A stretch of DNA of 64,000 nt from a virus (Duplodnaviria > Caudoviricetes). The stretch lies in IMG/VR virus record IMGVR_UViG_3300020365_000001. One strand, 5' to 3'. The notes under the pieces are model-generated. The model did no database searches. It worked only from the letters and a program-made list of their open reading frames with translations, and was not told the origin of the DNA. Below are positions 47,313 to 54,204 of this stretch, one piece after another; position 1 is the first letter of the stretch, and each line of letters starts with the position of its first letter. The translations under genes were made by a program, and so were the position numbers.

Positions 47313-47328
47313 ACGTATAGCATAAGAT

Positions 47329-47357
47329 AAAAAAAGAGAGGTGTCAAGACCTCTCTT
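47329..47357 (-). terminator. Rho-independent terminator with overlapping promoter
   Basis: AAGAGAGGT-CTTGAC-ACCTCTCTT followed by a T-run; TTGACA-17 nt-TATGCT overlaps it. Confidence 0.8.
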
Positions 47358-47365
47358 AGTATGAC

Positions 47366-47509
47366 TCAGGATTGAGAAGCGAACTTGCGTTCTACCTTGA
47401 CTCCACGATACATGAGGTCATGGTTGTTACGCTGGTCACGTTCTTGAAGAACCTTTGCCTTGTAACCTTCAGCGTCATACTTGACGCCGCGATAAGTGAT
47501 GGTAGTCAT
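47366..47509 (-). CDS. DUF4278-like small protein
   Basis: Hand translation MTTITYRGVKYDAEG...LMYRGVKV with two YRGV motifs; AGGAG Shine-Dalgarno. Confidence 0.8.
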   Translation of the reverse strand: MTTITYRGVKYDAEGYKAKVLQERDQRNNHDLMYRGVKVERKFASQS

Positions 47510-47542
47510 CAGTCTTACTCCTAAAGTAATTGGATTTTTAGG

Positions 47543-47784
47543 CCCGTTCCTTTAGTCGTTTGCGTCCCAAGGACATTCAGGAGTTGCATCCTGAATAGTC
47601 TCGACTAACTCAACTTTGATTTCATTCTTCAGGTACATATCTTTTTGAACTCTGAGGATGATAGCATCCGCATCTTCGCAAAGTATACCCGAGTAAAGTA
47701 GTAGTTCCGCCATGGGATGAACGGCTCCGTTCCGCGACTTACTTGCGTCCAGGCATGGGATATGAAGTCCCTTCTGGATGAACG
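47543..47784 (-). ncRNA. Tandem glutamine riboswitch-like element (glnA / Downstream-peptide type)
   Basis: Two CGUUCAUCC...GGACGCAA...GGAACGG units upstream of a DUF4278 gene, the usual target of these RNAs. Confidence 0.75.
47552..47713 (-). CDS. 53-aa hypothetical protein nested in the riboswitch loop
   Basis: MAELLLYSGILCEDADAIILRVQ...TPECPWDAND; GGAG upstream. Confidence 0.65.
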   Translation of the reverse strand: MAELLLYSGILCEDADAIILRVQKDMYLKNEIKVELVETIQDATPECPWDAND

Positions 47785-47791
47785 TATGGTA

Positions 47792-47819
47792 ATTATACCA
47801 CACTATGTATGTCTGTCAA
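47792..47819 (-). promoter_or_regulatory. Consensus sigma70 promoter for the riboswitch leader
   Basis: TTGACA-16 nt-TATAAT with extended -10 TG; the aptamer begins about 8 nt downstream. Confidence 0.85.
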
Positions 47820-54073: not shown

Positions 54074-54142
54074 GTATGAGTGCGGGGAACACTAGGTAAG
54101 ATATTCCTTCCTCACCCTCAGAGGAAGGTATTAGAGACTGTT
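54074..54142 (-). ncRNA. PhotoRC-II-like structured psbA leader RNA
   Basis: CAGUCUCUAAUA-CCUUCCUC-UGAGGGU-GAGGAAGG and AGUG-UUCCCCG-CACU-CAUAC hairpins immediately 5' of psbA. Confidence 0.75.
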
Positions 54143-54204
54143 GTTTAGTGTCGCTGTTTAGTCCCGGTGAGGCGACAAGTAGGTGAGGAAAACCTCACAC
54201 GAGT

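Follow-up and report, generated by a model that had tools for sequence, protein, structure and literature searches.

A predicted glutamine ON switch with two aptamer cores on a shared helix and a gene nested within the sensor in a cyanomyovirus

The 64,000-nucleotide stretch of viral DNA considered here (IMG/VR record IMGVR_UViG_3300020365_000001; the whole stretch is called the window) comes from a marine T4-like cyanomyovirus and carries, on its minus strand, a stand-alone phage cassette of about 470 nucleotides (nt) that consists of a promoter, a leader RNA with two aptamer cores, two small genes and a terminator. One of the genes, an open reading frame (ORF) of 53 codons, lies within a stem-loop of the leader, and the other, a DUF4278 gene downstream, encodes an IF17-like peptide. 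The function of the leader is most likely that of a glutamine ON switch for the IF17-like peptide, and the probability that it acts as such a switch, with two cores built on one shared helix and with the nested gene as optional cargo, is put at about 70%. The arrangement is not a chance match, as it recurs and each of its variable helices covaries. The same layout is found in seven named cyanomyoviruses of several genera, where the nested ORF is annotated as a hypothetical protein, and in at least 152 IMG/VR viral contigs (at least 119 by the exact pattern and 33 more by a variant-pattern scan). All features listed in an earlier reading of this DNA made from the letters alone (the sequence-only reading) were found where it had placed them, on the minus strand.

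The two units that the sequence-only reading saw in the leader are both present (47784-47727 and 47723-47544), with the three-base linker AGC between them; their parts are listed in Table 1. The nucleotides that form the ligand pocket of glutamine aptamers, whose identities and roles are taken from crystal-structure work (PMC6698751), i.e., C1, G2, the CGN strand and the closing long-range pair, are present and invariant in both cores. In the outer core a P2 hairpin (UCCAG/CUGGA) follows directly after CGUUCA, as in the type-I family RF01739, and positions 1-5 of this hairpin are 86-100% paired, with many pair types, in relatives where the hairpin is short. The stretch CGCAAGUA agrees with the Rfam consensus CGGAAGUA save for a type-II-style C. 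In the CGCAAA of the inner core the middle A is the one variable base, being replaced by C or U in some loci; CGCA and the last A are invariant. The last GGAACGG occupies 47550-47544, and in relatives this region aligns to the Rfam consensus GAAGGAACG; the constancy of the other copy, at 47733-47727, follows from the search patterns used to collect the loci, in which GGAACGG was fixed. AAGUA, one half of the E-loop, is invariant, and its partner reads AAA in the window but in most relatives GAA. The position that varies between A and G coincides with the second base of the stop codon of the ORF.

Table 1. Features of the cassette in the window (positions are those of the whole stretch).
Feature	Position	Strand	Remark
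Outer core 1, whole (CGUUCA to GGAACGG)	47784-47727	(-)	sequence reading
Outer core CGUUC (P1 5' strand) and junction A	47779..47784	(-)	invariant in 51/51 aligned leaders
Outer core P2 hairpin UCCAG...CUGGA	47748..47778	(-)	arms 47778-47774 / 47752-47748
Outer CGC (strand lining the putative ligand pocket) and AAGUA (E-loop half), CGCAAGUA	47740..47747	(-)	invariant
Shared helix P3, 5' strand AGUCG	47735..47739	(-)	compensatory partners
GGAACGG (47733-47727) and linker AGC	47724..47733	(-)	assigned to inner core in nested fold
Inner core CGUUCA	47718..47723	(-)	invariant although non-coding; pairs with preceding GGAACG in nested fold
Inner P2 5' arm UCCCA	47713..47717	(-)	its A is the first base of the ORF AUG
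Inner P2 3' arm UGGGA	47565..47569	(-)	within codons W-D; third codon positions invariant
Inner CGC and AAA	47559..47564	(-)	within codons D-A-N; third codon positions invariant
Shared helix P3, 3' strand CGACU	47554..47558	(-)	last U opens the ORF UAA stop
AAAG (second E-loop half), GAACG (outer P1 3' strand) and closing G	47544..47553	(-)	aligned to Rfam consensus
Nested gene, 53 codons, phrog_504 (T4-like gene cluster 430)	47552..47713	(-)	AUG 47713-47711, UAA 47554-47552
Anti-Shine-Dalgarno helix, 5' strand CUAAAG	47550..47555	(-)	overlaps P3 and E-loop; contains ORF stop
Anti-Shine-Dalgarno helix, 3' strand CUUUAG (47526-47521) over AGGAG (47522-47518)	47518..47526	(-)	covariation, folds
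DUF4278 gene, 47 codons, IF17-like peptide, two YRGV motifs	47366..47509	(-)	PF14105, 26.8 bits versus cut-off 25.3
Sigma-70-type promoter TTGACA-16-TGnTATAAT	47792..47819	(-)	12/12 consensus positions and TG extension
Intrinsic terminator (47357-47334) closing the cassette	47325..47357	(-)	9-bp stem, then T run

Covariation was followed across about 160 related phage loci. For the complementarity between AGUCG of the first unit and CGACU of the second, which had been proposed to link the units, variants were sought in IMG/VR by negating the AGUCG bases one at a time. Variants at the second position turned up in 33 loci, 29 of which have a readable partner strand, and the partner is compensated in every one of these 29: AAUCG faces CGAUU in 26 loci of several lineages and AUUCG faces CGAAU in three. 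For the third and fourth positions the IMG/VR scans turned up no variant, and three AGUCG loci carry G.U-compatible partners. The pairing thus occurs with three Watson-Crick pair types at one position, lies between AAGUA and GAAG, i.e., between the two halves of a type-I E-loop, and is open-ended, without a hairpin. Judged by these compensatory changes AGUCG/CGACU is a real helix, here called P3. The stem UCCCA/UGGGA that was said to enclose the ORF also holds up, since its arms covary over about 150 nt. Among 94 distinct arm pairs the first five positions pair in 87-100% of cases, U-A being exchanged for C-G and C-G for U-A, and in four loci the closing U-A pair has become C-G despite the resulting change of an Asp to a Gly codon. 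The covariation analysis across cyanophages that had been suggested as a check therefore supports each variable helix. In 51 aligned leaders all 1020 of 1020 cells of the ON fold are paired, as are all 306 of 306 cells of the OFF (anti-Shine-Dalgarno) helix, in which 19 double changes occur, compared with 18-75% in slid controls. The ON and OFF helices have bases in common, which is the mark expected of a switch.

The second of these helices bears on the expression of the DUF4278 gene, the product of which also matches phrog_5049 (E 4e-24). The alternative pairing of CUAAAG with CUUUAG over the AGGAG of this gene, another proposal of the sequence-only reading, covaries and excludes the shared P3 helix. 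CUAAAG stands opposite CUUUAG in all 36 distinct tails; where the strand reads CUGAAG the opposing base is C or U, A is never opposite C, and the change from A-U to G-C accounts for 19 cells. Covariation in the aligned sequences thus shows two mutually exclusive pairings, one of them predicted to hide the ribosome site of DUF4278. Where glutamine riboswitches precede DUF4278/IF17 genes they act as translational ON switches, and in the Synechocystis gifB leader a segment adjacent to P1 has been proposed to mask the ribosome site (PMC6212724). Modelled on the mechanism proposed for that leader (PMC6212724), binding of glutamine would let P3, the E-loop and the outer P1 hold CUAAAG, so that AGGAG is free and DUF4278 is translated, whereas without glutamine CUAAAG would pair with CUUUAG and the ribosome site would be hidden. 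The ON direction of the switch is thus predicted by analogy.

Judged from its sequence the leader is related to glutamine riboswitches and homologous to type-I aptamers (Glutamine-I; glnA, RF01739). It shares with these, and with the gifB/IF17 leader of Synechocystis (PMC6212724), the CGUUC/GAACG helix P1, the P2 hairpin, the pocket strand followed by AAGUA, P3, a GAA-type E-loop strand and a DUF4278 gene downstream, and, as in the gifB leader (PMC6212724), a segment beside P1 has the ribosome site as an alternative partner, from which a translational ON switch is predicted. It differs from the type-I family in that P3 opens onto a second complete core and not onto a hairpin, that its pocket strand and its closing pair belong to type II (CGC...GGAACGG), and that one stem closes round a protein-coding gene; the window element is also invisible to the Rfam model. 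With Glutamine-II (Downstream-peptide, RF01704; PMC6698751) the phage element has in common the CGUUCA, the hairpin, the CGCA and GGAACGG core with its C:G closing pair, a setting in marine Synechococcus and Prochlorococcus and a DUF4278-type peptide downstream, but it lacks the coaxial P2 hairpin holding GGAACGG in its loop, and single phage cores score 18-34 bits against a threshold of 33. Support for the relationship comes also from relatives without the ORF. In five of six of these RF01739 passes, with 38.4-42.9 bits against a threshold of 35, in alignments that cover both cores and run from the first CGUUC to the last GGAACG with 39-48 nt inserted in P3; no other register passes. Single cores of the seven named relatives, which have short first hairpins, reach 18-29 bits, below threshold. 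In the window RF01739 aligns core 1 only, and the P3 insert of about 210 nt exceeds what the scan aligns.

The way in which the cores are joined is best described by nesting, with the first CGUUC paired to the last GGAACG, a topology held to be about as probable as the interpretation as a whole. The outer core would then be an ordinary type-I aptamer (P1, P2 hairpin, CGC-AAGUA, P3 and the AAAG half of the E-loop). The inner core would sit in place of the P3 loop and would in effect be circularly permuted, its P1 being the GGAACG(G)-AGC-CGUUC hairpin and its P2, UCCCA/UGGGA, closing round the entire 53-codon gene. The GGAACG/CGUUC inner hairpin is present in both minimum-energy and centroid folds. 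In compact forms of the leader the nested fold comes to -23 to -26.5 kcal/mol and the OFF fold to -19 to -23.6 kcal/mol, and the inner hairpins are kept in both. No pseudoknot is required for the nested fold, which is more stable than two separate cores by 7-9 kcal/mol and comes within 2-4 kcal/mol of the OFF fold, and this energy advantage, together with the inner hairpins that it has in common with the OFF fold, favours nesting. The same is true of the E-loop, as AAGUA before P3 and (G/A)AAG after it fall in one core if the cores are nested, as they do in the type-I structure (PMC6698751). Nesting is further favoured by the single register in which the type-I model passes in ORF-less relatives, and by the large inserts of relatives, which sit in the three hairpin loops of the nested fold.

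A number of observations weigh against this interpretation. No glutamine family scores above threshold in the Rfam gathering scan of the window, nor is there a glutamine match at E 0.5 or better in an E-value scan of the whole window. When the small region is scanned, core 1 alone reaches 20.6 bits for type I (threshold 35) and 19.4 bits for type II (RF01704; threshold 33), the latter with non-canonical pairs in the aligned P2. The E-loop strand of the window is AAA and not the consensus GAA. Among the ORF-less relatives there is one in which the second core alone narrowly passes as type II (34 versus 33 bits) and another in which the type-I model aligned the second core only. The minimum-energy fold of the window leader is OFF-like, without the outer P1, and its z-score is only -1.7; the stem round the ORF has only five base pairs that are reliable, and these have to close a loop of some 150 nt. 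Finally, the P1 strands CGUUC and GAACG are present and invariant, yet each occurs twice, and as the two CGUUC and the two GGAACGG copies never differ, covariation is silent on the register and cannot choose between nested and side-by-side cores.

Part of this evidence would fit a side-by-side tandem, in which each core closes its own P1 and AGUCG/CGACU forms a pseudoknot-like bridge between the internal loops. Local pairing would come first during transcription, the P3 covariation suits this register equally well, and in ORF-less relatives the second core alone scores 31-34 bits for type II, once above threshold. It is nevertheless doubtful, since AAGUA and (G/A)AAG would lie in different cores, unlike in any solved glutamine aptamer, and since among the Rfam alignments the nested one scores best and alone passes consistently. 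Without the pseudoknot it is also weaker than the nested fold by 7-9 kcal/mol, more rearrangement would be needed to reach the OFF state, and the places where relatives carry large inserts coincide exactly with the three hairpin loops that nesting predicts. The sequence-only reading had taken the units to interlock but had let each of them pair on its own: the joining of the units through P3, with the E-loop halves on either side, stands, while the side-by-side pairing is disfavoured by the register of the type-I model in ORF-less relatives. It could also be argued that the cores no longer sense glutamine and bind a protein or another ligand, or act as a fixed structure only. The window scores are under threshold, and CGC/GGAACGG together with AAGUA mixes features of types I and II. 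Such a loss is improbable, because all pocket nucleotides known from the crystal structures (PMC6698751) are invariant in both cores, ORF-less relatives exceed the curated threshold and the downstream gene is a typical target of glutamine riboswitches (PMC6212724). Binding of glutamine by the leader is accordingly the expectation from the sequence comparison, and nested cores on a shared P3 remain the preferred arrangement.

The ORF within the second stem-loop, claimed as protein-coding from the outset, has the properties of a genuine gene. It matches phrog_504 over its full length (E 3e-22, residues 1-53 on 53 profile positions) and is annotated as a coding sequence in seven phages. Its AUG begins at the last base of the UCCCA arm and its last codons are W-D-A-N-D. 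Among 52 family members the mean pairwise differences at codon positions 1, 2 and 3 are 0.40, 0.19 and 0.52, so that third positions are the most variable; on the question of coding selection, which had been raised for this ORF, the pattern supports a gene. Cys12, Glu35 and Cys47 are invariant while the third positions of their codons vary. By contrast none of the three positions varies in the last five codons, which points to constraint by the RNA motif rather than by the protein. The lengths of the nested inserts are mostly multiples of three. The Shine-Dalgarno sequence of the ORF is likely GGAG at 47728-47725, 10 nt before the AUG: the linker begins with AG, making GGAG, in 120 of the 130 distinct leaders that bear an ORF and in none of the 9 that lack it, counts that are not phylogenetically independent. 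An AlphaFold2 model of the protein (predicted local distance difference test score, pLDDT, 84) is a two-helix hairpin with the two Cys regions at the same end. No Pfam family and no PDB fold match at E 0.001 or better was found that would suggest a function, and a protein-atlas search returned unnamed phage clusters only.

That the ORF is untranslated, and the insert only a long structured RNA loop, is highly improbable. The AUG does lie within a stem and the Shine-Dalgarno spacing of 10 nt is rather long, but the codon-position pattern is that of coding sequence, the codons of the invariant Cys residues vary at the third position, length changes come in multiples of three, and both the phrog_504 match and the confident helical model obtained from the family alignment speak for a protein. 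If the ORF is translated, its relation to the sensor has to be considered. The ORF has its GGAG within the hairpin of the inner P1, its start codon in the P2 arm and its stop codon in CUAAAG, so that a ribosome must unfold both cores and the masking helix. Its last five codons and its stop would extend over the CGC strand, P3 and the E-loop, and translation and folding of the sensor would exclude each other. It is conceivable that this competition between ribosome and RNA fold is put to regulatory use, so as to couple, reset or invert the response.

How far such regulation can be essential is indicated by relatives without the gene. In nine distinct leaders the second hairpin is short and holds no ORF; these leaders retain the same cores, P3, platform and DUF4278-type downstream gene. 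As they keep the same switch and expression platform, the nested ORF is optional cargo and not a required tier of the switch, and they give no support to the two-tier switch of the sequence-only reading, in which ribosomes on the nested ORF would gate DUF4278. Other ORF families are also found in the second hairpin, and in about 30 loci the first hairpin holds an ORF of 65-75 codons (phrog_6471), mostly with its AUG in the 5' arm and its stop in the 3' arm. All three stop codons occur in these first-hairpin ORFs, each matched by the 5' arm (UCUUAUG/CAUAAGA, UCUCAUG/CAUGAGA and UCCUAUG/CAUAGGA). A profile comparison of the phrog_504 and phrog_6471 ORFs gave a weak Cys-to-Cys link (probability 65%, E 6e-5). 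In the relatives L065 and L093 the nested ORF is a different one, with the stem GAUUAUGG/CCAUAAUC, and the frame from the 5'-arm AUG has no stop in the stem or P3 and runs 92 codons into the downstream region. The relatives L082 and L122 carry an extra insert of 60-110 nt between the inner GGAACGG and CGUUCA, i.e., in the third hairpin loop of the nested fold, without a long ORF; one frame of the insert in L122 ends ...SIRRWKKSL and resembles a gene remnant.

It is possible that the nested gene is cargo and nothing else, the riboswitch controlling DUF4278 alone and the hairpin loop being a tolerated insertion site for a small gene. The overlap of gene ends and stems would then reflect genome compaction and not regulation, and this would agree with the ORF-less relatives that have the same switch and platform, with the several unrelated-looking ORF families that can occupy either hairpin and with the one kind of insert, between the cores, that has no long ORF. 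On the other hand the AUG is always in the 5' arm, 4-7 nt after CGUUCA, across ORF families and in both hairpins, the stop codons lie in the 3' arm or in P3, and the Shine-Dalgarno-forming linker accompanies the ORF. These placements imply that translation of the ORF must physically disrupt the sensor. It is also tempting to speculate, though no more than tentatively, that one metabolite has two opposite outputs from a single leader RNA. At low glutamine the inner core would be loose, ribosomes would load at GGAG/AUG and the two-Cys protein would be made; at high glutamine the two ligand sites, coupled through P3, would lock both cores, so that the nested gene is shut and the IF17-like gene open. 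If true, genes inside aptamer stems may be a general phage way to put cargo under riboswitch control, and with the inner core there would be a naturally occurring riboswitch aptamer in circularly permuted form.

Known regulatory systems resemble the layout in part. As with leader-peptide attenuators and translationally coupled small ORFs, the RNA controlling a downstream gene would be reshaped when ribosomes move along a short ORF ahead of it; unlike in these, the nested ORF encodes a conserved protein family and not a sensing peptide, lies inside a metabolite aptamer and is dispensable for the switch. Tandem riboswitches (glycine; tandem glnA, Weinberg et al., 2010, PMC2864571) likewise have two same-ligand cores in one leader with one expression platform, but the phage cores share a helix, are most likely nested with the inner one permuted, and have genes within the sensor hairpins. 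A search for a published description of the gene-in-double-aptamer layout found none, although Ames and Breaker (2011) may describe the compact nested form. The words nested, interleaved and permuted are absent from the supplements of Weinberg et al. (2010; PMC2864571), and for glutamine riboswitches in cyanophages general mentions only were found in the literature. From surveys with covariance models it has been concluded that riboswitches are rare in phages; one of these reports no more than two glutamine aptamers from cyanophage genomes (McCown et al., 2017, PMC5473149), and a similar remark on rarity was made by Buchholz et al. (2022). The use of riboswitches by ocean cyanophages is probably much underestimated, as the gene-interrupted sensor, whose DNA has matches in 386 cyanophage records and in at least 152 viral contigs, was missed by the standard scan of the window. 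By way of the element a phage copy of a glutamine-synthetase-inhibitor-like peptide would be tied to the nitrogen status of the host. It also offers a test system for the cooperation of two aptamers joined by one helix, for whether a natural aptamer works when circularly permuted, and for the encounter of a translating ribosome and a metabolite sensor on one RNA.

The phage records matched by the 601 bases around the element are all Synechococcus, Prochlorococcus, cyanophage or marine entries. A pattern scan of cellular genomes gave 13 matches, about the chance expectation, and no host-chromosome copy with this exact pattern; the true matches are on phage-like contigs or on contigs attributed to non-cyanobacterial genomes, the latter probably by mis-binning. 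The phage leader is present on some contigs (loci L162, L163, L166, L168, L169 and L172) filed as Synechococcus, Verrucomicrobiales, Nonlabens xiamenensis, Euryarchaeota TMED129 or an unclassified bacterial assembly, two of them 188-194 kb in length; these are probably cyanophage DNA that is mis-binned or contaminating. Five loose-pattern matches in Flavobacterium sp. 14A (L161 and L167) were rejected as chance matches within a tandem-repeat protein gene and are not riboswitches.

The promoter read from the sequence alone matches the TTGACA/TATAAT consensus at all 12 positions and has a TG extension besides. The predicted transcript start is a few bases 5' of the first CGUUCA, and in relatives the -10 element lies 7-9 nt before CGUUCA. 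No NtcA box (GTA-N8-TAC) at an activating position was found in the window. The -10 hexamer lies within an inverted repeat whose arms covary (47790-47803, minus strand; GGTA-TAAT-TACC in the window). In relatives such as L002, L010, L011 and L021 the repeat at this position reads GGTCTATAATAGACC, and some relatives have there instead a perfect GTA-N8-TAC (NtcA-type) palindrome after a TATAAATA late-type box. The repeat could serve as an operator or, in a longer transcript, form a hairpin at the 5' end. Another promoter-like site, TTGACA-17-TATGCT (47319-47347, minus strand), overlaps the cassette terminator and precedes a small gene at 47312-47160 (phrog_878). A radical-SAM gene adjoins the element and thyX lies further downstream. 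The sole Rfam family above threshold in the window is a PhotoRC-II RNA at 54093-54190 on the minus strand (52 bits versus a threshold of 39).

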